In this document: positions 5,472-48,968 of the stretch, piece after piece
How positions within the stretch are numbered: position 1 is the stretch's first letter
Layout: each line of letters opens with the position of its first letter
Virus record (IMG/VR): IMGVR_UViG_3300042891_000377
Location: 32,001 to 96,000 of that record
Length of the DNA: 64,000 nucleotides
Reading direction: 5' to 3' (one strand)
Source: a virus
Program-made: the position numbers and the translations under genes
The notes under the pieces: generated by a model
Told to the model about the DNA's origin: nothing
The model's input: only the letters and a program-made list of their open reading frames with translations
Database searches by the model: none

Positions 5472-7388
5472 ATGAGCAAAAATACAATCATAGGCATTGA
5501 CTTAGGCACCACTAATTCTTGTGTGGCCATTCTTGAAAATAACAAATCACGTGTAATTGAAAATAACGAAGGTGCTCGTACTACACCAAGTATCGTTGCT
5601 TATGGCGATGAAATTATTGTAGGTGCTAGTGCTAAACGTCAAGCAGTTACAAATCCAAAAAACACAATTTACGCCAGCAAACGACTTATTGGTCGCAAGT
5701 TTGACGAATCAGCAGTACAAAAAGACATTGACCTAATGCCCTACAAGATCGTTAAAAACGAAAATGGTGATGCTTGGGTAGAAGTAAATGGCAATAAATT
5801 AGCACCTCCACAAATTTCAGCAGAAGTATTGCGCAAAATGAAATTGACAGCAGAGGACTATTTAGGTTATGAAGTAACTCAAGCAGTTATTACAGTACCT
5901 GCTTATTTCAACGACAGCCAACGTCAAGCAACTAAAGATGCAGGCCGTATTGCAGGACTAGAAGTATTGCGTATTATCAATGAACCAACTGCGGCGGCAT
6001 TGGCATTTGGTTGTGATAAGGGCGATAAAAAAGACCGTAAGATTGCTGTGTACGACCTAGGTGGAGGTACATTTGATATTAGTATTATCGAAATCAGTGA
6101 TATCGACGGCGAAAAACAATTTGAAGTATTGTCAACTAACGGTGATACATTCCTTGGTGGTGAAGACTTTGACCAACGTGTAATGGAATACTTGGTTGAT
6201 GAGTTTAAGAAAGAGTCCGGCATTGACTTAAAACAAGATATGCTTGCTCTACAACGTCTTAAAGAATCAGCTGAAAAAGCTAAAATTGAATTGTCAAGTT
6301 CAACACAAACAGACGTAAACTTACCTTACATCACTGCTGATGCTACTGGTCCTAAACACTTGTCAGTTAAACTAACACGTGCTAAGTTTGAAAGTTTAGT
6401 TGAAGATTTAATTAAACGTTCAATTGACCCATGTAAAATTGCAGTTAAAGACTCTGGTATTGCAGTCGGCGACATCGATGATGTTATCCTAGTCGGCGGT
6501 CAAACACGTATGCCTAAAGTACAAGAAGCTGTTGAAGCATTCTTCGGTAAGGCTCCGCGTAAAGACGTTAACCCAGACGAAGCTGTGGCAGTTGGTGCGG
6601 CTATCCAGGGTGCAGTATTAGGTGGTGACAAAACTGATGTATTATTACTTGACGTAACTCCGCTATCATTGGGTATTGAAACAATGGGTGGTATTATGAC
6701 CAAGCTGATTAAGAAAAATACAACCATCCCAACTAAAGCAAGCCAAGTGTTCTCTACAGCAGAGGACAATCAACCAGCGGTTACTGTTATGGTAGCACAG
6801 GGTGAGCGTGAGTTTGTTAAGGACAATAAAGTACTTGGGCAGTTTAATTTGGAAGGTATTGAACCACAACGTCGTGGTCAGCCACAAATTGAAATTACTC
6901 TTGACATTGATGCTAATGGTATCTTAAAAGTAAGTGCTAAAGATAAAGCAACTGGCAAAGAAAACAAGATTACTATCAAAGCTAACTCAGGTCTAACTGA
7001 AGAAGAAATTGATGCAATGGTACGTGATGCAGAAGTTAATGCTGATGCGGATAAAAAATTGCGTGAATTAGTTGATGCACGTAATCAAGCTGAAGCACAG
7101 GTTCATGATGTTAAGAAAACTGTAGAAGAAGCCGGTGACTCGGTAACTGCTGAACAACATACTGCAATCAATGATGCTATTGCCGCTGTAGAAGAAGCCA
7201 TTAAAGGTGATGATGTAGAAGCAATTACTACAGCAATGACTAAACTAGCAGAACCAATGGCACCAATCTACCAAGCTAAACAAGCACACGAGTCAGCAAC
7301 AGTTGAACCTGGTCAGCAAACAGCAACAGATGCACAAGATGGTGTTGTAGATGCTGAATTCACAGAAGTTAACAAGGAGAGTAAATAA
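5472..7388 (+). CDS. dnaK: Chaperone DnaK (Hsp70)
   Basis: [37 protein letters not shown]. Confidence 0.98.
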
Positions 7389-12567: not shown

Positions 12568-13434
12568 ATGAATAAAACACTTATATCCTTATTAATAGCC
12601 GCGCTGTTAACAGGATGCGCTACAGGTAGTGTTATTAAAGAAAAAATAACAGGTGAGCAATTTGACAAGCCTGAGATAGTACGTGAAACATATTTTACTA
12701 AACCAGAGAATAAGGTATTACCTCCAAGTGGTGGGCCTATTCCTATAGCAGTATATAGTTTTCAGGATAAAACTGGACAGCGTAAGAATATACCTAACGT
12801 GGCTAGTTTTAGTACTGCGGTAACACAGGGTGCAGAAGCATATCTAATTGGTGCTCTACAAGACGTAGGCGACCAACGTTGGTTTACTGTGTTAGAGCGT
12901 GTGGGCTTAGATAACTTGATTAAAGAGCGTCAAATGATTCGTCAAATGCGTGAACAATATCAAGGACGTGACGCTAAGGCATTACCACCAATGATGTTTG
13001 CTGGTGTTATTGTAGAAGGAAGTGTAACAGGTTATGATAGTAATCTGCTTACAGGAGGTAGTGGTATGCGCATACTAGGTATCGGAGCACAAACGCAATA
13101 CCAAAGTGATACAGTTACAATTACTCTAAGAACAGTAAGCGTTAATACAGGTGAAGTATTAACAACTGTAACAGTTACTAAAACAGTGTTAAGCTACATG
13201 GACAAACTTGGTATACTAAAGTTTGTTGAAGAAGGCACAAAAGCCGTTGAAGCTGAAACTGGTATGAGTATCAATGAAAGTGTCAATAAAGCAACTAGCC
13301 TAGCAGTTAAGGCTGCTGTAATTGCTACTATTCGAGAAGGAGTGCGTAAAGGGCACTGGGCATTTAAGGAAGAGCCTAAGCCTGTAGTACAAACAGATGG
13401 TGTAAAATACCCTTTGTTAGAAACAAAAAAATAA
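12568..13434 (+). CDS. csgG: Curli secretion channel lipoprotein CsgG
   Basis: Lipobox LTGC; VYSFQDKTGQRK, FSTAVTQG, WFTVLERVGLDNLIKERQMIR. Confidence 0.92.
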   Translation: MNKTLISLLIAALLTGCATGSVIKEKITGEQFDKPEIVRETYFTKPENKVLPPSGGPIPIAVYSFQDKTGQRKNIPNVASFSTAVTQGAEAYLIGALQDVGDQRWFTVLERVGLDNLIKERQMIRQMREQYQGRDAKALPPMMFAGVIVEGSVTGYDSNLLTGGSGMRILGIGAQTQYQSDTVTITLRTVSVNTGEVLTTVTVTKTVLSYMDKLGILKFVEEGTKAVEAETGMSINESVNKATSLAVKAAVIATIREGVRKGHWAFKEEPKPVVQTDGVKYPLLETKK

Positions 13435-14256: not shown

Positions 14257-15348
14257 ATGAAACTATTGCTTGCTTTAGCGTGCTTAGTAGCAACTACTAA
14301 CGCATGGGCAGGCATTGGAACTGTAAGCGATACTAAAGGTACCGCTTGTTCAATAGAGCGTGCTAAACAGACCCTGCCTGGCAACAAAGGTGCGACCATA
14401 GAAAGTATGGATACCTATGTTACAGGCGGCTGTGTTAGCAATATCACATTTAAAGATGACACCAAAGTAAAAATAACAGAAAACAGTCGACTAATGATAG
14501 ACGACTTTGTTTACGATCCTAAAAAATCCGACGCAGGTAAACTAGCTCTTAAAGTAGGTATGGGCACAGTACGTTATGCCTCTGGACAAATTGCTAAAAA
14601 CAATCCACAAAAGGTAGATATTAAAACACCCACAGCTAGTATTGCTGTTCGCGGTACAGACTTTAACATGACTGTAGACGAAGCAGGACAGAGTTTAGTT
14701 ATTCTTGTGCCTAGCTGTAAAGATGGTGAAAAGATTAAAGAATACGAGCTAGAAGAAAACTTATGTAAAGTGGGCAAGATCGAAGTCAGCACACTGGCTG
14801 GTGTAGTTACCTTAGACAAAGCATTTGAAGGTACGTATGTAACCAGTGCTAACATGATGCCTAGTCCTCCAGCTATTATTAACACAATTGAAAGTAAGAT
14901 TGGTAACAGTCTTATTATCACTCGCCCACCCGAAATTGTCAAAGCTAGTAAAGAAGCAGGTAAAAGCAAACGTGATCTAGAACAAGAAGAACTAGAAGCT
15001 ATTCAAGCAAGTCAACTTGCTCAACGTATAGCTAAAGAAGGTGAAGCTAAAGCTGTAGTGTTGCCTTATAGCTTTGACAGTGGTAAATCAGGATGTAATC
15101 CGGCAATCAATGTCTGCGTTAAATGGGAAAATCCGGATGGTGAAAGCATACAGGCCAAAGGTCGAGGTATAGCGTTTCGTCAAAGTGAAGATCACTATGC
15201 AGAAGTTAAAACACAGGGCTACGAAAGTAATACGTCAATTGAAATAATTCACGATGATAATATTGCCTCAGCTACAATTGGTTCGGGCGATCCAGGTGGC
15301 AATGTAGTGCGTATCAAACAGAATTCTGGAGTGTTAAGACGACAATGA
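14257..15348 (+). CDS. Periplasmic FecR-domain protein
   Basis: Signal peptide; F.DDT.V.ITENSRL.IDDFVYD, IKTPTASIAVRGTDF. Confidence 0.85.
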   Translation: MKLLLALACLVATTNAWAGIGTVSDTKGTACSIERAKQTLPGNKGATIESMDTYVTGGCVSNITFKDDTKVKITENSRLMIDDFVYDPKKSDAGKLALKVGMGTVRYASGQIAKNNPQKVDIKTPTASIAVRGTDFNMTVDEAGQSLVILVPSCKDGEKIKEYELEENLCKVGKIEVSTLAGVVTLDKAFEGTYVTSANMMPSPPAIINTIESKIGNSLIITRPPEIVKASKEAGKSKRDLEQEELEAIQASQLAQRIAKEGEAKAVVLPYSFDSGKSGCNPAINVCVKWENPDGESIQAKGRGIAFRQSEDHYAEVKTQGYESNTSIEIIHDDNIASATIGSGDPGGNVVRIKQNSGVLRRQ

Positions 15349-16472
15349 AACGGCTCCTTGTAATCTTATTATTAGTTTGCTCCAATACCTGGGCCGCAGG
15401 ACTTGCTGGACTTAATTATCAGAACTATGCCGCAGGTGGTGCTATGCCATCATATACGCAAGATGCTAATGGAAACATCACTAATCGCACACTACTATCA
15501 ACTGGAACTGTGAATACGGTGGGATTAACTACTAGTAGTGGAGCAGGCTTGCCTACTCGCAGTGATGGATTTATAGTTCGTTTCTATGGTTACATCAATA
15601 TAGAAACAGCAGGTACATATTACTTTGGCGGGCAAGCAGACGACGGTATCCGTATTAAGATTAATAACATATCTGTGGTTAATAGTTGGATAGAATCTGG
15701 CGGCGCATTTAGAGAAGGCAGCATTACTTTGTCAGCAGGAGTTGTTCCGGTAGAAGTAATGTATTACGAGAACGGCGGTGGACAAATGGTTAACTTCCAA
15801 TGGTTTATGAACGGCTATTGGCAGATTGTACCTACAGCGTCGATAGCTACAGATACTACCTATTGGGCGCCTGCGGCTCCTGTACTATGTTGCGGCGGCA
15901 GTTCGTCAAGTTTTAATGCTAGTCCATCTAATGTAACAAAAGTACAGTCATACGCCACAAGGAATACCAATGACAGTCAGGTGTACATAGACCAAATTGG
16001 TAATGATAACGAGATCACAGTTAACCAAACAGGTACTAAAAATAACTACACAGAATACAATAGTAGTGGTAGTTTCAATACCGTTAATATCTCACAAACT
16101 GGTAATAGTTCAACAACAGCAAACTACGTAGAACTAAATGTCAACGGTGATAGTAATATAGTAAATCTAACGCAGCAGAGTACAGGTGGTGCCAAGGGTA
16201 TCTACGCTACAGTTAACGATGACAATAATAATGTAACAGTCTTACAGAAAGACGGTGGTAATGCTTACTTAAACTTAAACCTAAGTGGCGGTAATAAAAC
16301 TGTAGACATAACGCAACAAGGCAGTGCTGCACACATGGCTGACATTACTCTAACTGGAGCAGGTGCTAGAAGTTTAAACTTAAATCAGCAAGGTAGCACA
16401 CAACAGTTTTACAGTATTAATAGTAGTTGCGCTAGTGCCTGTCAGGCAATAACAGTAATACAAGGACAATAA
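15345..16472 (+). CDS. Secreted PA14-domain plus curlin-repeat protein
   Basis: F.VRFYGYI...GTYYF...ADDGIR...YYENGGG (PA14), then IDQIGNDN/VNQTGTKN repeats. Confidence 0.78.
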   Translation: MKRLLVILLLVCSNTWAAGLAGLNYQNYAAGGAMPSYTQDANGNITNRTLLSTGTVNTVGLTTSSGAGLPTRSDGFIVRFYGYINIETAGTYYFGGQADDGIRIKINNISVVNSWIESGGAFREGSITLSAGVVPVEVMYYENGGGQMVNFQWFMNGYWQIVPTASIATDTTYWAPAAPVLCCGGSSSSFNASPSNVTKVQSYATRNTNDSQVYIDQIGNDNEITVNQTGTKNNYTEYNSSGSFNTVNISQTGNSSTTANYVELNVNGDSNIVNLTQQSTGGAKGIYATVNDDNNNVTVLQKDGGNAYLNLNLSGGNKTVDITQQGSAAHMADITLTGAGARSLNLNQQGSTQQFYSINSSCASACQAITVIQGQ

Positions 16473-16623
16473 CAGCAGAATCAGTGCTGTAACGTTATTA
16501 ATAACTGTTGTATTTTTACAACATTGTTATCAAAAAACAACAAAAGGTTGACTCTCCATTATAAATACTGTACACTGATAGTATAACATATTAGTGTTAT
16601 CCAATAAAAGGAGAAGTATCGTA

Positions 16624-17835
16624 ATGAAGAAATTATTATTAGCAACATTATTAGCAAGTATGTATTCAACTGCGAACGCTGGCATTCAAATTCCAGCTGG
16701 TGATTGGACTCTAGACATCGGCGGCGTTGTAAACGCTTACTACACAAACACACGCGGCACAGGTGATGCTGTAGTTGGTGGCGCCGGTGGCCCTAATACC
16801 AATGGTCAACGCAATGAATCAAATATTACAACTGGTCTATTACCAAACGTATTATCAGTTTCTGGTAAATCACGTCAAAATGATTTAGACATTGGTTTCA
16901 CTATTGCAATCAATCCAGGCGCTTCAACAACAGCAGCTGGTGATCAAGGCGCTAACCAAGAAAATCGTCAAGCATTTTTGACTATCGGTGATAAATCATG
17001 GGGTAGTGTAAAACTAGGTAAAGACCTAGGTATTTTCGCTAGTGATGCTATCTTAAACGACATGACATTGTTAGGTGTTGGTTCTGGTGCTGGCGCACTA
17101 GCTGGTAACACAACTACATTGGGTCGTATTGGTACTGGTTATATGTACGCTGACTGGAAATCACAAATTGCTTACACATCACCAAACTTTAATGGATTTC
17201 AATTCACAGCAGGTGTAACACAAGCATGGAATGCTCAAACAGCTGACTTAAATGCAGCAACAGCAGGTGTACAAGCTGCTTCAGCAACTTCAACAGGCCG
17301 TGGTGGTGCACAACCAGCTTTCGAAGGTAAAGTATCTTACTCATTAGCAGGTCCCATTGCTGCTAAAGTTTGGTCAAGTGCCATTACACAAAAAGTTGAA
17401 GGTGTTACTGGTGCCAGTGCCGATGACCGTGCTTATGCTTGGGACGTTGGTACAAACTTAACAGCTGGTCCATACGGTTTAACTGCTTATTACTTTGATG
17501 GTAAAGGTATTGGCCGTACACTTCAATTAGCTGATGGTTTTGATACTACTGGTCGTCGTCGTGATTCAAACGGTGGTTATGTACAAGGTACATACACATT
17601 GCCAACAGCAACTAAACTTGGCGTAAGCTGGGGTCAAAGTAAACTAGATCGTAACAGTGGTGAAACAGCAACCGCATTAGTTTCGAAAAACGAAATGTGG
17701 ACACTTGGTGCTTACCACCCACTTACTAAATCAGTTAACCTAGTAGCTGAATACTCAGACGTTAAGTCAGAAGCACAAAACGGTGCTGAAGGCAAATCAC
17801 GCTCAGTATCGGCAGGTGCTATCTTATTCTTCTAA
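16624..17835 (+). CDS. Outer-membrane porin (betaproteobacterial general-porin-like)
   Basis: AAGGAG RBS, signal peptide, amphipathic beta strands, C-terminal Phe. Confidence 0.85.
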   Translation: MKKLLLATLLASMYSTANAGIQIPAGDWTLDIGGVVNAYYTNTRGTGDAVVGGAGGPNTNGQRNESNITTGLLPNVLSVSGKSRQNDLDIGFTIAINPGASTTAAGDQGANQENRQAFLTIGDKSWGSVKLGKDLGIFASDAILNDMTLLGVGSGAGALAGNTTTLGRIGTGYMYADWKSQIAYTSPNFNGFQFTAGVTQAWNAQTADLNAATAGVQAASATSTGRGGAQPAFEGKVSYSLAGPIAAKVWSSAITQKVEGVTGASADDRAYAWDVGTNLTAGPYGLTAYYFDGKGIGRTLQLADGFDTTGRRRDSNGGYVQGTYTLPTATKLGVSWGQSKLDRNSGETATALVSKNEMWTLGAYHPLTKSVNLVAEYSDVKSEAQNGAEGKSRSVSAGAILFF

Positions 17836-17859
17836 GATTAACTTCTTAGTCTAATAATT

Positions 17860-17886
17860 AAAAAGCCCACTCCGGTGGGCTTTTTT
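17860..17886 (+). terminator. Intrinsic terminator after porin
   Basis: AAAAAGCCCAC-TCCG-GTGGGCTTTTTT. Confidence 0.88.
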
Positions 17887-17913
17887 ACGGAGATAACATC
17901 ATTTGGTTAAAAA

Positions 17914-18020
17914 TGTAACAAATTGTAAAAATATTGCTTGACAGGTGGCCGGTTATCATATACACTAGTAAACATATAGCAAATCACATTTGTAACAAGA
18001 TGTAACAAACTATATAAATA
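17914..18020 (+). promoter_or_regulatory. xoxF promoter region: sigma70-like promoter, late promoter and TGTAAC direct repeats
   Basis: TTGACA 17938 / TACACT 17961 (17-nt spacer); TATAAATA 18013-18020; TGTAA(C/A) at 17914, 17924, 17991, 18001. Confidence 0.55.
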
Positions 18021-18117
18021 AAGTTGTTATTAAGGGTCCTTAGTAACATTTTCAAAACTTGTGGTCCGCGGCATACAGCAACCGGCACGTTTTTATTTAA
18101 ACACAAGGGAGATGTAA

Positions 18118-19983
18118 ATGAAGTTAAAATCAATTAAAGTAGCATTAAGTTTAGTTTTAGCATTACCAGCAGTAGCTTTCGCAGCAGCTGACCAAGAAAA
18201 AGCAATGAAAGACGCTAACAACTGGGTTGGCCCACGTGGTCAATACGACAACCAAGGTTACAGTGCATTAGCACAAGTTAACAAAGGTAACGTTAAAGGC
18301 CTTAAAGCTGCTTGGACATTCGCTACCGGTGTAAACCGTGGCCACGAAGGTTCACCAGTAGTTGTTGGTAACATGATGTACGTTCACACAGCGTTCCCAA
18401 ACAACGTTTACGCTCTTGACTTAAACGACAATCAAAAAATCGTTTGGTCTTACTTCCCAAAACAAGATCCATCAGTACAAGCTGTATTGTGCTGCGATAA
18501 CGTTTCACGTGGTCTTGGTTACGGCGACGGTAAAATCTACCTACAACAAAACGATGGTAACTTGGTTGCTTTAGACGCTAAAACTGGTGCTAAAGTATGG
18601 TCAACTTTAATCAACGATCCAAAAGTCGGTGCTACTAACACTAATGCTCCACACGTGATCAAAGATAAAGTACTGACAGGTTGTTCAGGTGCTGAATTTG
18701 GTGTTCGTTGCTTTATCGCAGCTTACAACTTAAAAGACGGTTCATTAGCATGGAAAGCATACTCAACAGGCCCTGATGCTGAAATGTTAATCGGCGAAGG
18801 CTTCAACAAAGATACACCTGAGTACAGCGCACTATCAGTTTACCAAGACGTAAACGGTGGTAACAAATTAGGTGGTTCTTTCAACACTATCCCTAATGAC
18901 AAATTAGTAATTGGTCAAAAAGAGTTAGGCACACGTACATGGTTGAAACCACAAGCAGTTAAAGATGGTTGGCAACATGGTGGTGGCTCTGTATGGGGCT
19001 GGTGGCCGTATGATGCTCGTACAAACTTGGTTTACTACGGAACAGGTAACCCATCAGTTTGGAACCCAGATGTACGTCCAGGCGACAACAAATGGTCTAT
19101 GACTGTTTTCGCTCGTGACTTAGACACTGGCGTTGCAAAATGGGGTATGCAAATGACTCCACACGATGAGTGGGATTACGATGGTATTAACGAAGTAATC
19201 TTGTTCGACAAAGGTGGTAAAACATACGCATGGCACCATGACCGTAACGGTTTTGCTTACACTTGGAATGCTGGTAACGGTAAATTAGTTGCTGCAGAAA
19301 AAGTACACCCATTCGTTAACTGGGCAACTGGTGTTGATTTGAAAACAGGCGTGCCTAACAAATTGGCTACTGCTTCAACTCACCAAGATTACAATGCAAA
19401 AGGCGTTTGTCCAGCTGCTTTGGGTACTAAAGACCAACAACCAGCTGCGTACTCACCAAAAACTGGTTTAATTTACACTCCATTGAACCACGTATGTATG
19501 ACATACGAGCCAGTTGAGTCTAAATACGTTGCAGGTCAACCATGGGTTGGTGCTACATTGACCATGTTCCCAGGTCCAGACGGTGTAATGGGTGGTTTCG
19601 GTGCTTACGATCCAATGACAAACAAAAAAGTTTGGTACAACAAAGAGAAATTCTCTGCTTGGGGTGGTGCTTTAACAACTGCTTCAAACTTAGTATTCTT
19701 CGGTACTTTAGATCGTTGGTTTAAAGCTGTAGATGCATCATCAGGTAAAGAACTATGGAAATTCCAAGTTGGTTCTGGCGTGATTGGTAATGCATTCACA
19801 TACGGTCACAAAGGTAAACAACACGTTGGCGTGCTATCAGGTATCGGTGGCTGGGCTGGTGTGGCGATGAACCTTGGTATGACTAACCCAACAGACGCTT
19901 TAGGTGCTGCTGGTGGTTATGCTGAATTAACAAAATACAACGCGGCTCCTGGCGGCGGTGCATTAACAGTATTCAGTCTTTAA
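18118..19983 (+). CDS. xoxF: Lanthanide-dependent PQQ methanol dehydrogenase XoxF
   Basis: Signal peptide; vicinal disulfide LCCD; GAEFGVR; GNPS.W; TPHDEWDYDG with the extra Ln-ligand Asp (MxaF has DYAG); W-docking repeats. Confidence 0.93.
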   Translation: MKLKSIKVALSLVLALPAVAFAAADQEKAMKDANNWVGPRGQYDNQGYSALAQVNKGNVKGLKAAWTFATGVNRGHEGSPVVVGNMMYVHTAFPNNVYALDLNDNQKIVWSYFPKQDPSVQAVLCCDNVSRGLGYGDGKIYLQQNDGNLVALDAKTGAKVWSTLINDPKVGATNTNAPHVIKDKVLTGCSGAEFGVRCFIAAYNLKDGSLAWKAYSTGPDAEMLIGEGFNKDTPEYSALSVYQDVNGGNKLGGSFNTIPNDKLVIGQKELGTRTWLKPQAVKDGWQHGGGSVWGWWPYDARTNLVYYGTGNPSVWNPDVRPGDNKWSMTVFARDLDTGVAKWGMQMTPHDEWDYDGINEVILFDKGGKTYAWHHDRNGFAYTWNAGNGKLVAAEKVHPFVNWATGVDLKTGVPNKLATASTHQDYNAKGVCPAALGTKDQQPAAYSPKTGLIYTPLNHVCMTYEPVESKYVAGQPWVGATLTMFPGPDGVMGGFGAYDPMTNKKVWYNKEKFSAWGGALTTASNLVFFGTLDRWFKAVDASSGKELWKFQVGSGVIGNAFTYGHKGKQHVGVLSGIGGWAGVAMNLGMTNPTDALGAAGGYAELTKYNAAPGGGALTVFSL

Positions 19984-19997
19984 TCTGTAGTTAACCT

Positions 19998-20024
19998 AAA
20001 AAGCCCACTTCGGTGGGCTTTTTT
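19998..20024 (+). terminator. Intrinsic terminator after xoxF
   Basis: AAAAAGCCCAC-TTCG-GTGGGCTTTTTT. Confidence 0.88.
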
Positions 20025-20045
20025 ACCTCTGCAATAAATACTTTT

Positions 20046-20144
20046 ATGTATACTTGGCGCGAAACGTTTATCTTTATTGAAATCATTCTATTCTTCACAC
20101 TCGTGTTTTCTATCCCCTACATAGAACAACTAATCCAACCGTAA
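20046..20144 (+). CDS. Small hydrophobic peptide (32 aa, not in ORF track)
   Basis: MYTWRETFIFIEIILFFTLVFSIPYIEQLIQP; preceded by AATAAATA. Confidence 0.35.
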   Translation: MYTWRETFIFIEIILFFTLVFSIPYIEQLIQP

Positions 20145-20182
20145 CAAAAATTTAATCTGTTTGTAACACTACTGTAATCTTT
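20139..20182 (+). promoter_or_regulatory. Tandem Pho-box-like (PhoB) repeats
   Basis: 11-nt phased units CCGTAACAAAA/ATTTAATCTGT/TTGTAACACTA/CTGTAATCTTT upstream of phosphate genes. Confidence 0.65.
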
Positions 20183-20200
20183 GTGTGTTTAAATATACAT

Positions 20201-20950
20201 ATGACCACAAGATATAAGACCATTTGTATATCCGACTTTCACCTTGGCACTAAAGATGCTAAGGCTGATCTATTAAACAATTTCCTTAAAAATCACACCT
20301 GCGAAAATTTATTTTTAGTTGGTGATATTATTGACGGTTGGAAGATACAGCAGAACAAGTGGAAGTGGCATCAAAGCCATACTAATGTTATTCGTCGTAT
20401 ATTAGGTTATAGCAAGCGAGGTTGTAATGTAACCTATGTAACTGGCAATCATGACGAGTTTCTTCGCCCGTTGGTAAGTCATGGATTCAATCTCGGCAAT
20501 ATTCGTATGGTAAATCAAGCAGAATATCGCAGTATAGATGGCGAGTTGTTTCTAATTACCCACGGCGACTTATTTGACGGTATTACTAGATTAGCACCGT
20601 GGTTAGGATTTTTAGGTGATAAAGCATATGATGTAGCTTTATGGTTTAATAACTATTTTAACTTTGCTCGTAGAAAATTAGGATTTGGTTATTGGAGTTT
20701 AAGCAAGTTTTTAAAAGCTCGCGTTAAGAAAGCAATGGGTTTTGTATTTAAGTTTGAACTTAACATGTTACAGTATGCTCAAAAACAAGGGTATGATGGT
20801 GTTATCTGCGGACATATACACACACCCGAAATTAAACACATCAACGGCATGATTTATATGAACGACGGTGATTGGGTTGAAAGTTGTAGTGCCCTAGTAG
20901 AAGATTATGAAGGACGCTGGGATATTATATATTGGAATGAAATTAAATAG
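20201..20950 (+). CDS. Metallophosphoesterase, LpxH/PlcP-like (probable phospholipase C for lipid remodelling)
   Basis: ISDFHLG, LVGDIIDGW, GNHD, HGD, CGHIH, NDGDWVES. Confidence 0.8.
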   Translation: MTTRYKTICISDFHLGTKDAKADLLNNFLKNHTCENLFLVGDIIDGWKIQQNKWKWHQSHTNVIRRILGYSKRGCNVTYVTGNHDEFLRPLVSHGFNLGNIRMVNQAEYRSIDGELFLITHGDLFDGITRLAPWLGFLGDKAYDVALWFNNYFNFARRKLGFGYWSLSKFLKARVKKAMGFVFKFELNMLQYAQKQGYDGVICGHIHTPEIKHINGMIYMNDGDWVESCSALVEDYEGRWDIIYWNEIK

Positions 20951-20962
20951 GAGAGAATGTAA

Positions 20963-21964
20963 ATGACGATTCAACAGATTAAAACGATAATGTATTATGT
21001 AGTAATAGCATTTGCTGTATCAATGGCTGGATTAAAACAAGTTCAGGCAGCAGACAAAATGGTCAAAATAGACGGCAGTTCGACAGTCTATCCAATATCA
21101 GAAGCAGTAGCAGAAGAATTTCAAAAGAAAACAGGGGTTAAGGTAACAGTAGGTGAAAGTGGTACAGGTGGCGGCTTTAAAAAGTTCTGTCGCAGTGAAA
21201 CTGACATCAGCGATGCTAGTCGTCCTATTTCACAAAAAGAGATGGATGCTTGTAAAGAAGCAGGTGTACAGTACATCGAATTGCCCGTTGCCTACGATGC
21301 TCTAACTGTAGTAGTAAACAGCAAAAATGGCTGGGTTAAATCATTTACAGTTGAAGAATTGAAAAAAATATGGGCACCGGGTAGTTCAGTTAAAAACTGG
21401 AATCAAGTAAATCCAGCTTATCCAAATCAACCACTACAATTATTTGGCCCAGGTACAGCAAGTGGTACATTTGACTACTTCACCGAAGCTATCAATGGTA
21501 AGGCAAAATCCAGTCGCAGCGACTACACACCAAGTGAAGATGACAATGTTCTAGTAACTGGTGTAGCAGGTAATTCGGGGGCACTAGCTTACTTTGGTTA
21601 TGCTTATTACGAAGAAAACAAAGATAAATTACGTGCCATTCCTATCATTGCTAAGGGCTCAACAACGCCAGTATTACCAAGTCCAGAAGCAGTTATGAAT
21701 GGTACCTATCAACCATTAAGCCGCCCACTGTTTATCTATGTAAATGCAACAGCGGCTGCGTTTAGACCAGAAGTAAAAGCATTTGTAAATTTCTATTTAG
21801 AAAATGCACCTAAGTTAGTAAAAGAAGTAAAGTATGTTCCATTACCAGCAGACGACTATGCGGCAGTAACAGAGCATTTCAAAGCACTAAAACCAGGTAC
21901 AGGGTTTAACGGTACTCCAGAAGTAGGCATTAAAATTAAAGACTTAATTAAACGAATCAAATAA
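20963..21964 (+). CDS. pstS: Phosphate-binding protein PstS
   Basis: [44 protein letters not shown]. Confidence 0.93.
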
Positions 21965-21973
21965 GGAAACATT

Positions 21974-23383
21974 ATGACATTAAAAAATATTATCACAGGT
22001 TTATTCATAGCATCAGCATTAATTGCTACACCAGTATATGCAGACAGCACTAACGACATCGTGAATGCGTTGGTGATGAAAGGCGTGTTAACCGAAGAAG
22101 AAGGTGCCTTAATTAACAAAGGTCGTACTGGAGAAACAAGCGCAGTTAAAAAAGAAAAAGATACCACTGTACATGCGGCTAGCAAAATGAATATACGTGG
22201 CTACTTACAGATACGAAATACTACTATGCTCAGTGGTGACGAAGGAGTTAACCTTTGGTCAGATCGATCTGTAGGTGACAAAAATTCACTCGCTGACCAA
22301 GACAAAAACTTCCTAATTCGTCGTGCTCGTATTATTATATCAGGTTCGGCAGGTGATCGTTTAGATTACTATATTCAACCCGACTTTGCTAGTACAGCAG
22401 GTACCACAGGTAACGTTGCGCAACTACGTGATGCTTATGGTGACGTGAATCTAACCAAAGATAAAGTGCACCGTGTGCGTGTGGGTCAAAGTAAAGTACC
22501 ATATGGATTTGAAAACTTACAATCTTCACAAAATCGTTTAGCACTTGATCGTGCCGACGCATTTAACAGCGCAGTACGTGATGAGCGTGATTTAGGTGCG
22601 TTCTACTACTACACACCAGATAATGTACAAAAGTTGTTTAAAGAAATACAAGACAGTGGTTTAAAACATTCAGGTAACTACGGTATGTTTGGCGTTGGTA
22701 TATATAACGGCCAGGGTGCTAACCAACAAGATCGTAACGATAATTATCATACAGTAGCACGTTTTACTTACCCTTGGAAAACAGAAAGCGGACAAATATA
22801 CGAAGCTGGTATACAAGGTTATACAGGCAAGTATGTAAGAACAGGCAGTGCGTATAGAAGAAACATGGGCAACAACGTTTACGCAACTAAAACACCGACA
22901 TTAGAACCGGGCAACACAACTGGATTTAAAGACGAACGTATGGGTGTAAGTTTTATGATGTACCCACAACCGTTTGGTATACAAGGTGAGTGGAACTGGG
23001 GTAAAACTCCTGGCTTAGATACTGCTGCTAGTACTGATGGTATTATCAAAGAAACTAACTTGAACGGTGGTTACATTCAAACTATGTATAAAATTGATAA
23101 CTTTAAAGTATTAGATACCAATGGTACACTAATTCCATTTGTTAGATGGCAATACTTTGATGGTGCGTCAAAAGCAGAAACTAACTCACCAATGAACAAG
23201 GTTAACGATTGGGAGATGGGTGCTGAATGGCAAATCGCGCCAGAGGTTGAACTTGTGGCTTACTATCATATGATGAATCGTAGCAACCTAGTAACAGGAG
23301 CATCGGCTACTACACTAGTAAAGCAGGACTATGCTAACTTTAAAGCAGATGCCCTGCGTGTTCAACTACAGTATAACTTTTAG
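21974..23383 (+). CDS. Phosphate-selective porin (OprO/OprP family)
   Basis: Signal peptide; L..KGVLTEEE; FLIRRARI, LRDAY, GQSKVPYGFENLQSS; C-terminal YNF. Confidence 0.8.
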   Translation: MTLKNIITGLFIASALIATPVYADSTNDIVNALVMKGVLTEEEGALINKGRTGETSAVKKEKDTTVHAASKMNIRGYLQIRNTTMLSGDEGVNLWSDRSVGDKNSLADQDKNFLIRRARIIISGSAGDRLDYYIQPDFASTAGTTGNVAQLRDAYGDVNLTKDKVHRVRVGQSKVPYGFENLQSSQNRLALDRADAFNSAVRDERDLGAFYYYTPDNVQKLFKEIQDSGLKHSGNYGMFGVGIYNGQGANQQDRNDNYHTVARFTYPWKTESGQIYEAGIQGYTGKYVRTGSAYRRNMGNNVYATKTPTLEPGNTTGFKDERMGVSFMMYPQPFGIQGEWNWGKTPGLDTAASTDGIIKETNLNGGYIQTMYKIDNFKVLDTNGTLIPFVRWQYFDGASKAETNSPMNKVNDWEMGAEWQIAPEVELVAYYHMMNRSNLVTGASATTLVKQDYANFKADALRVQLQYNF

Positions 23384-23391
23384 GAAACATT

Positions 23392-23481
23392 ATGTTTGAA
23401 CTTTTTATAGATGCTGTAAAAGATATTAGCGGTATATTGGCGATAATGGCGGCTATTGGTATATGGTCATTTTTACTATAG
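23392..23481 (+). CDS. Small single-TM peptide (29 aa, not in ORF track)
   Basis: AGGA RBS; MFELFIDAVKDISGILAIMAAIGIWSFLL. Confidence 0.45.
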   Translation: MFELFIDAVKDISGILAIMAAIGIWSFLL

Positions 23482-23614
23482 ATTGCAAGAAAATTACTGG
23501 TCTTTAATGATTTTACGTATGTTATTTAGGTCAAAACGGTGTTACTATATGTATAAGTACTAGTAACAACAAAACATGTTGTGGTACTTTTAATAATTTA
23601 CTAGGAGAAATACT

Positions 23615-23686
23615 ATGTGGACTAAACCAGCAGCCACTGAAATGCGTTTCGGTTTTGAAGTAACTCTTTACGTAATGAACCGTTAA
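23615..23686 (+). CDS. pqqA: PQQ precursor peptide PqqA (not in ORF track)
   Basis: MWTKPAATEMRFGFEVTLYVMNR with conserved E-x-x-x-Y; AGGAG RBS. Confidence 0.95.
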   Translation: MWTKPAATEMRFGFEVTLYVMNR

Positions 23687-23709
23687 TTTTAAGGTCCATA
23701 ACGTAAACA

Positions 23710-23732
23710 AAGCCTCTTAGGAGGCTTTTTTA
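23710..23732 (+). terminator. Terminator after pqqA (overlaps the stop of the convergent HNH gene)
   Basis: AAAGCCTC-TTAG-GAGGCTTTTTT. Confidence 0.75.
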
Positions 23733-24181
23733 TTGGCCCGTGTTTCTGCCAAGGATGCTCTAATTTTTGCTCGTGTTTCTTCACTAACGACATGCCCTTT
23801 ACGACTTGCGGCCCAATTAGCCATATGTTCTTCAGACTTCTTTTTGCCCTTCATTGCTTCAGAACGTTTTTTATTGGCTTCTTCTAACTTACCACTTGCT
23901 CGTTGTCTTTCTGTTCTAAGTTTACAACTTTCTCTGAGTTTTGCTTTAGATTCCTCAGACATGGGTTTCTTGCTGCCTTTACTCCTTGCCATAAACATTG
24001 CCTCATCTTGTCCCATTTGCCCAGACAATGCTTGCCAAGCACAATAGTCTTGCCAATTGCCGTGTTGTTCGTACAGCAAGCGATGCGCTTCTGCGTGAGC
24101 TTCTACGGTAAGTTCTATTAGGTTACTAGGATCGTCGGTGCCGCCTAGGTATTGAGGTAAGATGTGATGTATATGTTTCAT
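23717..24181 (-). mobile_element. Free-standing HNH homing endonuclease with NUMOD3-like DNA-binding repeats
   Basis: HIHHILP..LGGTDDPSNL..LT...HAEAH; repeats SEESKAKL / SEETRAKI. Confidence 0.75.
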
Positions 24182-24212
24182 ACAGTTATTTATTATTGTT
24201 ACTTCATAACCT

Positions 24213-24262
24213 ATAAACAAAACTTATTGCGACCATTTAAAAATACAATTAAAAAAACCTAT
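24213..24262 (+). promoter_or_regulatory. Possible OxyR-type site upstream of ahpC
   Basis: ATAA-N7-TTAT-N7-ATTT-N7-CAAT plus ATTA-N7-CTAT; the region is very AT-rich. Confidence 0.4.
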
Positions 24263-24335
24263 TAATCAGGCTTTTTTTATTAAAAATTTTAATATATAAT
24301 ATATGTACATTAACAATTTAATCAAGGGGAAGTAA

Positions 24336-24902
24336 ATGAGTTTAATCGGAAAACAAGTAGAAGCATTTAAAGCACAAGCATACCGTCAAGGTCAGTTTGT
24401 AGAAGTATCAGAGCAAGATTTAAAAGGTCGTTGGAGTATAGTATTCTTTTACCCAGCAGACTTTACATTCGTCTGCCCAACAGAATTAGCAGACTTACAA
24501 GACGTATACGCTAGTGACTTTAAAGCAATGGGGGTAGAAGTATACAGCGTAAGCACAGACACACACTTTGTACACAAAGCATGGGCAGATGCTACAGACA
24601 CAATCCGTAACATCACCTACACAATGATTGGCGATGCTAACCATCAGTTAGCTCGACAATTTGGTGTGCTAATTGAAAGCGAAGGACTAGCTGATCGCGG
24701 TACGTTTGTTATTGATCCAGATGGTGTTGTACAGATCATTGAGATCAATCCAGGGGGTGTTGGCCGTGACGCAAAAGAACTATTGCGTAAAGTTAAAGCG
24801 GCAAAATACACTAGAGAGCATCCGGGTGAAGTATGCCCGGCTAAATGGCAAGAAGGAAGTGCTACCTTAGCACCAAGTTTGGATTTAGTAGGTAAACTAT
24901 AA
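24336..24902 (+). CDS. ahpC: Peroxiredoxin AhpC
   Basis: [21 protein letters not shown]. Confidence 0.95.
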
Positions 24903-24906
24903 AAAC

Positions 24907-24933
24907 AAAAAGCCCCAATTAAGGGGCTTTTTT
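24907..24933. terminator. Bidirectional terminator between ahpC and cytochrome c
   Basis: AAAAAGCCCC-AATTAA-GGGGCTTTTT. Confidence 0.8.
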
Positions 24934-24934
24934 A

Positions 24935-25231
24935 TCACTGAGTTAACACCCATTTAACTAGCGTTTTAATATCCTCGTCTTTGATCTGTGGACTCATTGG
25001 CGGCATTGGGATAGGACCCCATACTCCACTACCACCTGCTTTAACCTTTGCTACTAGTTTAGCCTCTACATCTTGACCTTTGTATTTCTTAGCAACGTCT
25101 TTATACGCTGGACCTAAGATCTTATGATCAACTGCGTGACAAGCTAAACACCCACTTTTCTGTGCCAATGCTTGGTTAGCATTTGCTGTGATGCAACTAC
25201 CTAATAATAATACTGCTAAAATAGTTTTCAT
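24935..25231 (-). CDS. Periplasmic class I cytochrome c (c551/c552-like)
   Basis: Signal peptide, CLACH haem motif, GPAYKDVA, GVWGPIPMPP (axial Met). Confidence 0.92.
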   Translation of the reverse strand: MKTILAVLLLGSCITANANQALAQKSGCLACHAVDHKILGPAYKDVAKKYKGQDVEAKLVAKVKAGGSGVWGPIPMPPMSPQIKDEDIKTLVKWVLTQ

Positions 25232-25346
25232 TTTAGACCTTTCATAAAAGTTAACTTACAATGTATTTAACGCCGATAAACTATATCTATTTATTTTTGG
25301 TAGAATTTTGATTGACGAAAATTCCAAAAGAGTAAATAATAGTACT

Positions 25347-27371
25347 ATGATGAAAAATAAACTTAAAAAACTCCTAGTCAGTCCGTGGACTGCGTTAATT
25401 ACATTAGCTGTTATTGTAGTAGTAATCCTACAAGGACCTACATTCGTAGAGTCGGTTAGACTTAGATACTTTGACACACTGATTAGTGGCAAGGCTCCTA
25501 CAGAAAATAATATCTATACTGTAAACATAGATGAAGCAACATTAGACAAGTATGGGCAATGGCCATTTAAGCGTGACAAGTACGCAGACCTAATTGATGA
25601 CCTGTACAAACATGGCGCTGGCCTAGTTGTTTGGACTGTTATGATGCCAGAAGCAGACCGTCAAGGTGGCGATGCGGCCTTGGCATTAGAGTTAGAGGAC
25701 CATCCAGTTATCCTTACTAACATGCCCAGTGAAAAGTCTAAGAACATCCCACGTAAACCAGGCAGTGCTGTTATTGGTGACGAGTACAGCGACACAATTA
25801 TCACCTATCCGGGTATCATTGCTAACATTCCAGAACTAGAACGTAATGCCGCTGGTGTTGGTATTGCTAACACATTCCCAGAGGTAGATGGTGTTAATCG
25901 TCGACTACCATTGTTCGTTGGTTATGACAATAACGTATATCCAAGTATTCCGTTAGAAGTATTACGTGTTATATCGCAAGACTCAACATTCCAAGTTAAA
26001 CTAAATGAATTTGGTGTTGAGAAAATGCGCATACCAAGTTTCCGTCCTATCAGCACAGATAGCTTAGGTCGTATCTGGGTAGACTGGAGTCAAAAGTCAA
26101 CACAGGTATCAGCAGTCAACTTGCCTACAGACTTTGGTGGTGCTGTGGTTATTGTAGGCCTAAGTGCCGCAGGTTTAGCTAACCCAGTGCCAACTAGTAT
26201 CGGTAGCGTATGGCCACAAGATATGCAGGCCGCTGTTATTGGTACGTTAGCTAACAACGTAAACATTGAACGTCCATTCTGGGCAGACAATGCTGAACTG
26301 TTGGCTCTTATTGTTATCTCACTTATTATTTTAATCTTGAGCCGTTGGGTATATGTTGGCCTAGGAGTTGGCGTTGTATTGCTTGCGGCAATTACACCTG
26401 CAACAATGTATGCGTTTGCGCACTATAACTTCTTGTTTGATGCCATTGTGCCCACAGCAGGCGGTGTACTGGTTATGCTACACGCTTATGGTGTTAAGTT
26501 TATTAGCGAGTTCTTACAGAAACAACAGATCAAGAAACAATTTGGTAGCTACGTTAACCCTACTATTGTTGAACGCTTACAAAAGAATCCAGAGCTGATT
26601 AAACTAGGCGGCGAACGTAAAGAACTTTCAATTGTTATGACTGACCTACGTGGCTTCACAACACTTGGCGAATCGTTTGGTGATGATGTAGAAGGACTTA
26701 CACAGATCATGAATGACTACATGACAGCATTGAGTATTCCTGTGCTAAAGAATGATGGTACTTTAATTAAGTTTATCGGTGATGCTAGTTTACACGTACA
26801 CGGTGCTCCGTTGGATGATGCTAATCACGCTAAGACTGCGGTGCGTACTGCACTCGAAATGATCAAAGCCATTGAAGACTTTAACGTAGAACTTGTTGCT
26901 AGTGGCCGGCCACCGGTTGGTATGGGTGCTGGTGTTAACACAGGTGAAACCTTAATTGGTAACATTGGTGCTAAGAGCAAGTTTGGTTATGACGTTCTAG
27001 GTGACAGTGTAAGTACTGCGGCACGTTTAGAAGGACAAACTAAGTCATATGGTGTGTTACTAATCATCGGTCCTAAGACTGCTGAATACTGTAAAGATGA
27101 CTTCCCTGTAGTATGGTTAGACAACATTGCCGTTAAAGGTAAAACTATTGGCTTAGATATCTACACAGTTGGTCGTACTAATCTTTATATGCACGAGGAG
27201 TATCGTAAAGAATATACTCGTGGTAATTGGGGCAAGGCTATTGTATGGGCTAAAAAATTAGTCAACAACGATGATGTTGATATTAAACATTACTATGAAC
27301 TAATGATTGAACGTATGGAACAGGGTGTTCCTGCAAACTGGGATGGCACTTATCACGCCACTTCAAAATAA
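25347..27371 (+). CDS. CHASE2-domain class III adenylate cyclase
   Basis: N-terminal TM, IDEATL..YGQWPF.R (CHASE2), further TMs, TDLRGFT, KFIGDA, GVNTG, YDVLGD.V..AARLEG. Confidence 0.9.
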   Translation: MMKNKLKKLLVSPWTALITLAVIVVVILQGPTFVESVRLRYFDTLISGKAPTENNIYTVNIDEATLDKYGQWPFKRDKYADLIDDLYKHGAGLVVWTVMMPEADRQGGDAALALELEDHPVILTNMPSEKSKNIPRKPGSAVIGDEYSDTIITYPGIIANIPELERNAAGVGIANTFPEVDGVNRRLPLFVGYDNNVYPSIPLEVLRVISQDSTFQVKLNEFGVEKMRIPSFRPISTDSLGRIWVDWSQKSTQVSAVNLPTDFGGAVVIVGLSAAGLANPVPTSIGSVWPQDMQAAVIGTLANNVNIERPFWADNAELLALIVISLIILILSRWVYVGLGVGVVLLAAITPATMYAFAHYNFLFDAIVPTAGGVLVMLHAYGVKFISEFLQKQQIKKQFGSYVNPTIVERLQKNPELIKLGGERKELSIVMTDLRGFTTLGESFGDDVEGLTQIMNDYMTALSIPVLKNDGTLIKFIGDASLHVHGAPLDDANHAKTAVRTALEMIKAIEDFNVELVASGRPPVGMGAGVNTGETLIGNIGAKSKFGYDVLGDSVSTAARLEGQTKSYGVLLIIGPKTAEYCKDDFPVVWLDNIAVKGKTIGLDIYTVGRTNLYMHEEYRKEYTRGNWGKAIVWAKKLVNNDDVDIKHYYELMIERMEQGVPANWDGTYHATSK

Positions 27372-32163: not shown

Positions 32164-33198
32164 ATGAATACTAAACGCATAGGCTTTGCTTGTAAGTGGA
32201 TCGATAGCCCAGATCAGGTTAATGGTATCAAACCGTTAGATGATGCTAAACAGTATAACACTGGCAGTACAACAGTAGCATGGCTTAACCGCCAAACTAA
32301 GGAAGTTGCCGAAGAAAAACTATGGGACCTAATGGTAGGTAACATAGAATCAACCCGTAAGTTAGTAGAAAGAATTGGAACATTAAATGGCAACCTTAGG
32401 ATGGTTCGTATCAGCTCTGATATATTACCAGTATACACTCAGTCTGATTGGAGTTATTTTTGGCGCAAGCCTGATGTCGTTAGTTATTGCGAGCAGGCCT
32501 TGGGTAAGGTGGGTGAGCTTGCTCGTAGGCTTGATGTGCGCTTATCTTTTCACCCGGGTCAATTCACTGTACTTGCAAGTGATAATGACGACATTGTTCA
32601 CAGAAGTATAGAAGAATTCGAGTACCATGCGGACATGATTCGTTGGATGGGCTATGGTCAAAAATTCCAAGACTTTAAATGTAACGTACACATCGCAGGT
32701 CGTCGTGGCGCACAGGGCATACGCGATGTATACCCCCGACTAAGTGTTGAAGCACGTAATACCTTAACTATCGAAAATGAGGAGATGAAACATGGACTTG
32801 TGGATTGCCTTGAGCTTTATGATCTTGTGCCAATTGTGCTTGATATACATCATCATTGGGTCCGAGAGGGAGAATATATCTCAAGTAATGACCCAAGAGT
32901 TGCGAAGGTTATTGAAAGTTGGCGTGGCGTGCGTCCTGCTTGTCATTACAGCGTATCTCGTGAAGACGTATTGGTTGGGCACGATACTAGCGTTGCCCCT
33001 GACTACCAACAGCTATTAGAATCTGGCTACAAGAAAAGTAAAATGCGAGCACACAGTGACTTCTATTGGAACACTGTGGTTAACGATTGGGCATTAGAAC
33101 ACCTGGCATGGGCTGACATTATGTGCGAGGCTAAGGGTAAGAATCTTGCGTCATTTGCCTTGTATGAACGTGCTAAAGAGTTAGGCTTAACTAGTTAG
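32164..33198 (+). CDS. uvsE: UV-damage endonuclease UvsE/UvdE
   Basis: RIGFACK, RISSD, RLSFHPGQF, IENEE, LDIHHH, HSD, MCEAK.K. Confidence 0.9.
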   Translation: MNTKRIGFACKWIDSPDQVNGIKPLDDAKQYNTGSTTVAWLNRQTKEVAEEKLWDLMVGNIESTRKLVERIGTLNGNLRMVRISSDILPVYTQSDWSYFWRKPDVVSYCEQALGKVGELARRLDVRLSFHPGQFTVLASDNDDIVHRSIEEFEYHADMIRWMGYGQKFQDFKCNVHIAGRRGAQGIRDVYPRLSVEARNTLTIENEEMKHGLVDCLELYDLVPIVLDIHHHWVREGEYISSNDPRVAKVIESWRGVRPACHYSVSREDVLVGHDTSVAPDYQQLLESGYKKSKMRAHSDFYWNTVVNDWALEHLAWADIMCEAKGKNLASFALYERAKELGLTS

Positions 33199-48369: not shown

Positions 48370-48612
48370 ATGAAAGTAAGCGTTTTATTAACAGCAGTAT
48401 TATTAGCAGTTGCAAGCATTGCATCAGCTGAAGAAGTTAAACAGAACACTAACACTCAACATCAACTATCAAAACGTCCTTATGCAGCGCCTGCTGTAGA
48501 TAAGGAAACATTTGATGGCGCGGTTGTTGATAAAAAAGAAGTAGAGAAACCTACACATTTAAATTTACACATGTTGGGTAAGCGTCCGTTTATGGAAAAA
48601 GCGACTGACTAA
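48370..48612 (+). CDS. Small secreted protein with duplicated HxLxKRP(Y/F) motif
   Basis: GAGGAG RBS; signal peptide; HQLSKRPY and HMLGKRPF. Confidence 0.7.
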   Translation: MKVSVLLTAVLLAVASIASAEEVKQNTNTQHQLSKRPYAAPAVDKETFDGAVVDKKEVEKPTHLNLHMLGKRPFMEKATD

Positions 48613-48965: not shown

Positions 48966-48968
48966 AGT

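Follow-up and report, generated by a model that had tools for sequence, protein, structure and literature searches.

The locus analysed here raises the question of whether a phage has assembled a dedicated kit for lanthanide-dependent methanol oxidation. It lies within bases 32001-96000 of the 104,171-bp linear IMG/VR virus record IMGVR_UViG_3300042891_000377, a stretch of 64,000 nucleotides that we call the window and whose numbering is used for all coordinates below. The initial annotation had recognized genes for a porin, a secreted pyrroloquinoline quinone (PQQ) methanol dehydrogenase of the XoxF type, a PqqA peptide and a periplasmic cytochrome c, and had proposed that they work together as one module. 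Our analysis leads to another picture: judged from sequence, these four genes are best read as independent cassettes in a variable island and not as one kit. We consider it likely, taking the parts of this reading jointly, that a large T4-like freshwater myophage infecting Methylophilaceae carries a hypervariable auxiliary-gene island between its PA14/curlin and CHASE2 genes, made of single-gene cassettes, the youngest of which is xoxF, placed at a duplicated terminator hairpin. The xoxF unit is organized as follows.

17859-17888, no strand: terminator hairpin copy 1 of a 30-nucleotide direct repeat (repeat family D1), left boundary of the xoxF cassette
17891-20140, plus strand: xoxF cassette of 2.25 kb, an insertion relative to syntenic phages
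18118-19983, plus strand: xoxF, 621 amino acids, predicted secreted PQQ methanol dehydrogenase of the D-Y-D type (TIGR03075)
19997-20026, no strand: terminator hairpin copy 2 of the direct repeat (repeat search)

The encoded protein scores 613.5 bits against TIGR03075 (cut-off 480), which places it in the PQQ methanol/ethanol dehydrogenase family, and its closest solved structures are the lanthanide XoxF enzymes 6oc5 (E 7e-201) and 6dam (E 4e-196), aligned end to end over the length of an eight-bladed propeller. The vicinal Cys-Cys pair (amino acids 125-126, nucleotides 18490-18495) aligns with the CCD of 6oc5, and the D-Y-D motif (amino acids 353-355, nucleotides 19174-19182) stands in a WDYDG context, with the extra aspartate two residues past the catalytic one; MxaF has D-Y-A instead, that is, alanine where XoxF has this extra aspartate. 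The phage protein retains every invariant column (333 of 333) of an alignment of 77 Methylophilaceae XoxF proteins, and the homologues P0001-P0011 stand at 90-95% identity. The intact gene with both motifs described in the initial annotation is thus found exactly where it had been placed, and its product is a functional-looking, predicted lanthanide-type methanol dehydrogenase. In a DNA tree, the window xoxF falls inside the 77 Methylophilaceae xoxF genes as sister to that of isolate RH-M32. We presume that the clade corresponds to the one labelled XoxF4, the tree covering xoxF genes of Methylophilaceae and their phages.

The origin of this gene can be traced closely. Nucleotides 18172-19984 are 98.4% identical to the chromosomal xoxF of the Methylophilaceae isolates RH-M32 (OZ271852) and MMSCM63 (OZ271845), followed by a runner-up at about 90% in a host comparison set holding one genome per prokaryote species. 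Host identity starts past the signal-peptide codons and ends at the stop codon; the mature protein differs from that of RH-M32 by one residue (S158A), and the signal peptide is a different one. The rest of the 14.5-kb island reaches at most 77% nucleotide identity to these two isolates, except for stretches of about 100 nucleotides in pqqA at 85-86%. At the protein level, identity to RH-M32 is 97.6% for XoxF, 78% for PstS, 73% for OprO/P, 65% for the cytochrome c and 60% for the porin. With xoxF so much closer to the host than the other island genes, it must be much younger in the phage than its neighbours. The G+C content of the gene (43.5%) is also close to that of the host allele (43.7%). 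The joint reading given above, which we hold likely as a whole, includes a source for xoxF: the chromosomal gene of a close relative of RH-M32 and MMSCM63, which either was taken up by the phage or recently converted a phage copy.

We also considered whether the whole island could be a near-identical copy of a host segment with the same gene order, an outcome that the initial annotation had named as damaging to its proposal. This was rejected, since near-identity is confined to the xoxF reading frame (18172-19984), and both flanks and gene order differ from the host. In RH-M32 and MMSCM63, the chromosomal cluster is canonical and consists of xoxF, a solute-binding protein (XoxJ-like), a 190-residue cytochrome c (XoxG-like) and a second cytochrome; the phage copy, one residue apart in its mature part, has another signal peptide, other flanks and none of these partners. 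Indeed, no homologue of xoxJ, xoxG or the second cytochrome was found in the entire 104 kb, and no PqqE either (mxaI and pqqB/C/D were not searched individually), so that the absence of xoxJ and pqqE noted for the window extends to the full record. A radical-SAM/SPASM protein at 44967-46280 was examined as a PqqE candidate and rejected. With XoxF and PqqA but neither xoxJ/G nor pqqE, the phage must depend on host partners.

The similarity to the host is unevenly distributed along the gene. Sliding-window comparison to MMSCM63 gives 100% identity over approximately 18844-19830 (about 1 kb), 93% around 18600-18770 and 88% at the 5' end. The xoxF of phage locus L004 is fully host-like from 18606 to about 19680 and falls to 88-90% at its 3' end, L106 carries a third 3' variant, and the last 9 nucleotides of the window gene are of the phage type, matching L004. 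The divergent xoxF tracts were also inspected for an AT-ward substitution bias, as a way of telling true recombination from assembly path-switching, and showed no clear one. A mosaic of this kind is the outcome expected from gene conversion of a resident phage allele by a host allele, and equally from path-switching during assembly. We therefore put forward, tentatively and at less than even confidence, that phage xoxF may be continually re-sampled from the infected Methylophilaceae strain: internal tracts would be overwritten by the host allele through homologous recombination, while signal-peptide region, promoter region and terminator would remain those of the phage, and the terminators, perhaps with an HNH endonuclease encoded nearby, would serve as exchange sites for cassettes. 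If so, the mature viral XoxF would stay nearly host-identical and compatible with host XoxG and XoxJ.

The limits of the cassette are sharp. In the xoxF-less loci L131, L134, L138 and L139, alignment to the window runs to 17885-17890 and resumes at 20141-20146; in L131 the match extends to 17890 and, after 2 nucleotides, continues over 20141-20202. This break and resumption define the xoxF unit as a clean 2.25-kb insertion. The two copies of the 30-nucleotide hairpin that accompany it (17859-17888 and 19997-20026) are 97% identical, and the same hairpin also lies 3' of xoxF in L004 and L106. These two loci, from different samples, show other arrangements, xoxF-pqqA-HNH-AhpC in L004, with a different island context, and xoxF-pqqA-cytochrome-CHASE2 in L106. 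In the metagenome contig L261, a single unknown open reading frame lies between the 5' region of xoxF and a curlin-repeat gene, and in the distant relative L003 (backbone proteins at 30-75% identity) xoxF is again found in the island flanked by the PA14/curlin and CHASE2 genes.

The initial annotation had named a chimeric join as a possible refutation. These joins bear directly on such a case, in which reads of xoxF from an abundant host would have been threaded into a phage contig, through chimeric assembly or contamination. The 98-100% identity to the host gene and the mosaic pattern are what such an artefact would produce. However, about 280 nucleotides on the 5' side (promoter region and signal-peptide codons) and about 155 on the 3' side are missing from the host locus and from the xoxF-less phages alike, the reading frame is unbroken where host identity starts, and the final 9 nucleotides are of the phage type found in L004. 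In addition, L003, L004, L106 and L261, all from other samples, independently tie xoxF to the same phage backbone, which argues strongly against a chimeric contig. We regard this explanation as hardly credible. As a host-derived metabolic gene between phage genes, with a placement repeated in independent assemblies, xoxF has the origin and position of a phage auxiliary metabolic gene.

The cassette also carries possible signals for its own expression, which are listed below together with the equivalent motif of the porin gene.

16560-16567, plus strand: T4-late-promoter-like motif TATAAATA upstream of the porin gene (motif scan)
17938-17966, plus strand: sigma-70-like promoter TTGACA-17-TACACT in the xoxF cassette (consensus scan, 10 of 12 positions, a pattern match only)
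18013-18020, plus strand: T4-late-promoter-like motif TATAAATA, 98 nucleotides upstream of xoxF (motif scan)

The motif TATAAATA, which we take to be the T4 late-promoter consensus, occurs six times in the 64 kb, each time immediately upstream of a correctly oriented gene, porin and xoxF included. Its placement suggests late, phage-controlled transcription. The island cassettes have each their own ribosome-binding site and hairpin terminator; the porin is preceded by AAGGAG, 8 nucleotides before its ATG at 16624, and pqqA by AGGAG, with a terminator at 23709-23728. Upstream of xoxF we observed a pair of 34-nucleotide repeats (17900-17933 and 17987-18020, 76% identical), each ending in a box resembling TATAAATA, which bracket the sigma-70-like promoter at 17938-17966. 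This repeat pair may be a regulatory site.

Phages have gained xoxF repeatedly, and from different host clades. In the tree of 80 genes (the 77 from Methylophilaceae and three full-length phage copies), the three phage genes fall in three host clades: the window copy with RH-M32 and MMSCM63, the copy of L002 with LSUCC0401 and LSUCC0665, and that of L003 with Uisw_099_01. Constraining them to monophyly costs 517 log-likelihood units and is rejected with p-AU 1e-8 in the approximately unbiased (AU) test.

This recurrence bears on a reading in which xoxF is a neutral, transient passenger, picked up recently from a host by illegitimate or terminator-mediated recombination, with no selected function and destined for loss. 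Complete identity to the host over about 1 kb, the absence of the gene from the nearest relatives, and a G+C content still at the host value and not shifted toward the 38.5% of the contig all fit such a view. The gene is, however, fused in frame to a different but plausible signal peptide and preceded by promoter-like signals of its own; no fewer than three other assemblies contain the cassette as well, in varied island contexts; three phage lineages acquired xoxF separately from three host clades; and a relative as distant as L003 holds it in the same island. Overall, we find the passenger reading rather unlikely.

Several observations weigh against our preferred interpretation of an island of cassettes with xoxF as the youngest. 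The junction between porin and xoxF is observed only in the window contig, and the case for continuity over 17.8-20.2 kb is drawn from comparison with other assemblies. The alternation of tracts at 100% identity with others at 88-93% could be an artefact of an assembly graph containing both the phage allele and an abundant host allele. The motif TATAAATA is not over-represented (six observed against ten expected), only its positions being suggestive. Finally, the codon differences to the host (26 synonymous and 3 non-synonymous) may predate the capture and have arisen in hosts, and near-identity to the host implies that residence in the phage may be too brief for selection to be demonstrated.

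L003, the 72-kb phage contig IMGVR_UViG_3300025120_009955, offers a further observation on the company that xoxF keeps. Directly after xoxF it encodes a 946-residue formate dehydrogenase alpha subunit (L003:11955-14795; TIGR01591, 885 bits, cut-off 666), and beyond it pqqA and a quinoprotein-dehydrogenase-associated SoxYZ-like carrier (L003:18082-18801; TIGR04557, 197 bits, cut-off 140). In the literature searched, we found no phage with both the first and the last enzyme on the path from methanol to CO2.

We turn now to the partners of xoxF in the proposed kit. The remaining genes of the island and its two edges are the following.

15345-16472, plus strand: PA14 and curlin-repeat protein (Pfam PA14, Curlin_rpt), conserved backbone gene, left island edge
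16624-17835, plus strand: general Gram-negative porin (Porin_4) with signal peptide (PF13609, E 4e-22)
20183-20950, plus strand: calcineurin-like metallophosphoesterase, weakly LpxH-like (PF00149, PF12850; NCBIfam matches below cut-off)
20963-21964, plus strand: PstS-family periplasmic phosphate-binding protein (TIGR02136, 316 bits, cut-off 206.6)
21974-23383, plus strand: OprO/P-family phosphate-selective porin (PF07396, E 1e-38)
23615-23686, plus strand: pqqA, 23 amino acids, stand-alone (TIGR02107)
23717-24220, minus strand: HNH/NUMOD3 endonuclease, homing-endonuclease-like (weak Pfam HNH and NUMOD3 matches)
24336-24902, plus strand: AhpC peroxiredoxin (TIGR03137, 316 bits, cut-off 272)
24935-25231, minus strand: cytochrome c of the c551/c552 (c8) type, 98 amino acids (PF00034)
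25308-27371, plus strand: CHASE2 adenylate/guanylate cyclase (Pfam), conserved backbone gene, right island edge

All four genes of the proposed module are present and intact where the initial annotation had put them, within about 9 kb, but that account had omitted the five genes lying between them (metallophosphoesterase, PstS, OprO/P porin, HNH endonuclease and AhpC). The island edges are conserved, the PA14/curlin protein at 69-90% amino acid identity in L111 and L139 and 30% in L003, and the CHASE2 cyclase at 83-97% in close relatives and 53% in L003.

The PqqA peptide passes TIGR02107 (38.4 bits, cut-off 20), in agreement with its first identification, and contains the conserved Glu-x3-Tyr as EVTLY. 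It stands alone and does not head a pqqABCDE operon; host genomes carry several dispersed pqqA-like copies, which indicates that a position in that operon is not strictly required of pqqA. We found the gene in 11 related viral loci. A PqqA core motif of the Methylophilaceae type occurs in at least 120 contigs of viruses, and no xoxF was present in the fetched parts of 80 of them. Among phage genes, pqqA would be the older of the two and is by far the more widespread. The HNH endonuclease abuts pqqA and has the terminator region in common with it, and the pqqA-HNH pair recurs in L004 and L139 (72-75% amino acid identity) and in L210 (53%). This endonuclease may drive the transfer of pqqA or neighbouring cassettes between co-infecting phages.

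The cytochrome shows the CLACH haem motif, a signal-like N-terminus and the PF00034 domain, as anticipated for a periplasmic class I cytochrome c. Its closest structures are 2d0s (E 3e-29) and the cytochrome c551 1dvv (E 4e-26), with CLACH and GPIPMPP (bearing the distal methionine) aligned; a mature length of about 80 residues likewise agrees with the c8 type. A candidate identity as XoxG was rejected, the protein being of the c551/c552 type and BLASTP to host XoxG returning no significant similarity (E 2.5); the idea that it is the electron carrier of XoxF within a kit is not supported. In the host, the homologue (65% amino acid identity) stands by itself among unrelated genes at a distance from the xox cluster. 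The nearest relatives of the phage cytochrome are themselves phage proteins, which cluster with it at 80-95% identity, compared with some 70% to the cytochromes of cellular Methylophilaceae.

For the porin, the family assignment stood (PF13609 Porin_4, E 4e-22) and the suggested part in substrate entry found no support. It shares 60% amino acid identity with two general Porin_4 porins of the host, which lie in a housekeeping region beside an integrase and not in a methanol locus, and 88-95% with 12 viral contigs. Nine further viral loci have the porin without xoxF downstream, several of them with PstS or OprO/P directly next. Its relationship to general host porins and its position beside PstS/OprP in relatives leave a role in substrate entry unsupported. 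In RH-M32 (G001, C1:1548228-1554625, locus L101) we observed two porin copies about 6 kb apart with a phage-type integrase in between, and an integrated element may carry the second of them.

Related phages also keep these genes without xoxF. The viral records G006 and G010 have no xoxF in any of their sequence and carry the same island, with OprO/P, phosphoesterase, pqqA, AhpC and cytochrome, and in G010 also the porin; the xoxF-less loci L131, L134 and L138 retain porin, pqqA, AhpC or cytochrome. AhpC adjoins pqqA or xoxF in L004, L006, L111, L112 and L139.

With these data, the four-part kit can be weighed in its full form, in which methanol or lanthanide enters through the porin, XoxF hands its electrons directly to the cytochrome, and all four genes are co-selected. 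All four proteins are periplasmic or outer-membrane and span 8.6 kb, xoxF, pqqA and cytochrome are directly adjacent in L106, and the content of L003 (xoxF, formate dehydrogenase alpha subunit, pqqA and SoxYZ-like carrier) indicates that genes related to one-carbon metabolism do accumulate in this island. Yet xoxF is strain-variable, and porin, pqqA and cytochrome persist in close relatives that lack it; both strands are used, with separate terminators and with phosphate and stress genes interposed; the cytochrome is unrelated to host XoxG; the porin resembles general porins outside methanol loci; and divergence from the host differs very much from gene to gene. We consider such a kit, and with it the full four-gene module of the initial annotation, quite improbable. 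Instead, the island looks to us like a set of envelope and periplasm genes that were each acquired independently. Energy metabolism would be served by xoxF, pqqA and probably the cytochrome, and phosphate or nutrient uptake by PstS and OprO/P, perhaps with the porin and the phosphoesterase, while AhpC fits peroxide defence.

A mechanism for xoxF can be proposed on these grounds. During infection, the phage would transcribe xoxF from its own upstream signals, and the pre-protein would be exported by the phage-specific signal peptide. The enzyme would mature in the periplasm with PQQ, lanthanide supply and XoxJ of the host, and pass its electrons to host XoxG, so that methanol could feed the respiratory chain while host transcription declines. 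Phage pqqA would supply the precursor peptide, which host PqqB-E consume stoichiometrically as they make PQQ. The c551/c552-type cytochrome would be a general soluble periplasmic carrier, probably acting downstream toward the terminal oxidase and not as the dedicated acceptor of XoxF.

The core of this proposal was already known, since Coutinho et al. 2020 (Microbiome 8:163, PMC7678222) reported methanol dehydrogenase in T4-like Methylophilaceae phages of Lake Baikal (populations VP_139 and VP_266) and PqqA in VP_266, claimed the first viral report of a methanol dehydrogenase gene, and proposed the same auxiliary role in boosted methanol oxidation and PQQ supply. Compared by published description, those populations resemble the window phage in being freshwater, low-GC and T4-like with predicted Methylophilaceae hosts, and both have ribonucleotide reductase and radical-SAM genes (PMC7678222). 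The text of that paper contains neither "xoxF" nor "cytochrome", so that the lanthanide type and the c551-type cytochrome are not described there, nor does it include an analysis of cassettes and indels, near-identity to cultivated hosts, or a test of repeated acquisition (PMC7678222). The expectation in the initial annotation that viral methanol dehydrogenase and pqqA genes had been reported was therefore right, and its suggestion that novelty may lie in the full module is weakened by that publication. The new contributions of this analysis are the dissection of the cassette, the finding that its xoxF is nearly identical to that of cultivated hosts, the polyphyletic position of phage xoxF genes, the classification of the cytochrome, and the view of an island whose content varies.

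Further searches gave few points of contact. Methanol dehydrogenase goes unmentioned in a 2024 survey of viral genes for methane metabolism, and no paper uniting lanthanide, xoxF and virus-encoded was found in the literature. Among GenBank phages, megablast of the island gave no match, and tblastn of XoxF returned only distant glucose-dehydrogenase-like genes in Acinetobacter phage records, with no xoxF in the collection.

Two other phage systems are comparable. The pmoC-phages of Chen et al. 2020 are reportedly large freshwater phages that carry a single subunit or enzyme of one-carbon oxidation in the host, said to be highly similar to the genes of co-occurring hosts; there the protein is reportedly a methane monooxygenase subunit and the hosts are methanotrophs, whereas here it is a methanol dehydrogenase. 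Cyanophages with psbA and pstS combine, as here, a phage copy of a core energy-harvesting protein with a phosphate-uptake gene, and their mosaic psbA alleles are attributed to phage-host gene conversion. Unlike that system, the present one concerns periplasmic quinoprotein respiration and not photosynthesis, and gene conversion is only suspected.

In lakes and coastal seas, Methylophilaceae rank with the most abundant consumers of methanol, and they depend on lanthanide XoxF. Phage XoxF and PqqA could sustain methanol oxidation in infected cells and shift carbon and rare-earth use at the scale of ecosystems, an idea already published. The precise link to RH-M32 and MMSCM63, two cultivated isolates, opens the hypothesis to experiment, and the strain-variable presence of xoxF allows xoxF-plus and xoxF-minus phages of one lineage to be compared as natural controls. 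The assignment of roles is also corrected, the cytochrome not being XoxG and the porin grouping with phosphate-uptake genes.

The phage nature of the surrounding sequence, stated in the initial annotation, is borne out by a virus record with T4-like virion, tail-fibre-like and replication genes. One virion structural protein (128-1888) shares 45% identity with those of T4-like cyanomyophages, and the 131 GenBank records that it matches are all phages; the record also encodes a primase, DnaB helicase, NrdAB and DNA ligase, as well as tail-fibre-like proteins. Coding density is about 96%, with 116 of 144 open reading frames on the same strand (a simple estimate based on these frames), and G+C content amounts to 38.5% over the contig and 36-43% in the island genes, compared with 47-52% in three presumed-host loci. 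Over the 16 kb that precede the island, two other viral records, G006 (219 kb) and G010 (95 kb), run collinear with the window at 86-92% nucleotide identity. The Gp23 capsid protein (PF07068) was not found in the record or its syntenic relatives and is present only in G007, which has just the porin cassette in common with the window phage; Terminase_6N gave a single borderline match, in G006. The T4-like assignment is based on the virion protein match and the published classification.

Other genes of the record deserve brief mention. A permuted transfer-messenger RNA (tmRNA) at 48598-49014 on the plus strand fits both betaproteobacterial and permuted tmRNA models, with an ARAGORN tag of 29 residues, consistent with a betaproteobacterial host. 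Upstream of the island, a CsgG-like curli secretion protein (12568-13434; NCBIfam E 7e-53, below cut-off) belongs to a long series of exported proteins that includes PA14/curlin, the porins, PstS, XoxF and the cytochrome. The window further encodes a full-length DnaK (5472-7388), with 67-69% amino acid identity to DnaK-annotated GenBank phage matches and also present in huge uncultured phages, GroEL (51147-52784), a UvdE UV-endonuclease (32164-33198) and a tryptophan-halogenase-like protein (62314-63918; phrog_2928, E 3e-148). Finally, the radical-SAM protein at 44967-46280, preceded by an Asp/Asn hydroxylase-like gene, has its SPASM domain at the N-terminus (amino acids 10-79) and its radical-SAM core at amino acids 139-292, the reverse of the usual order.

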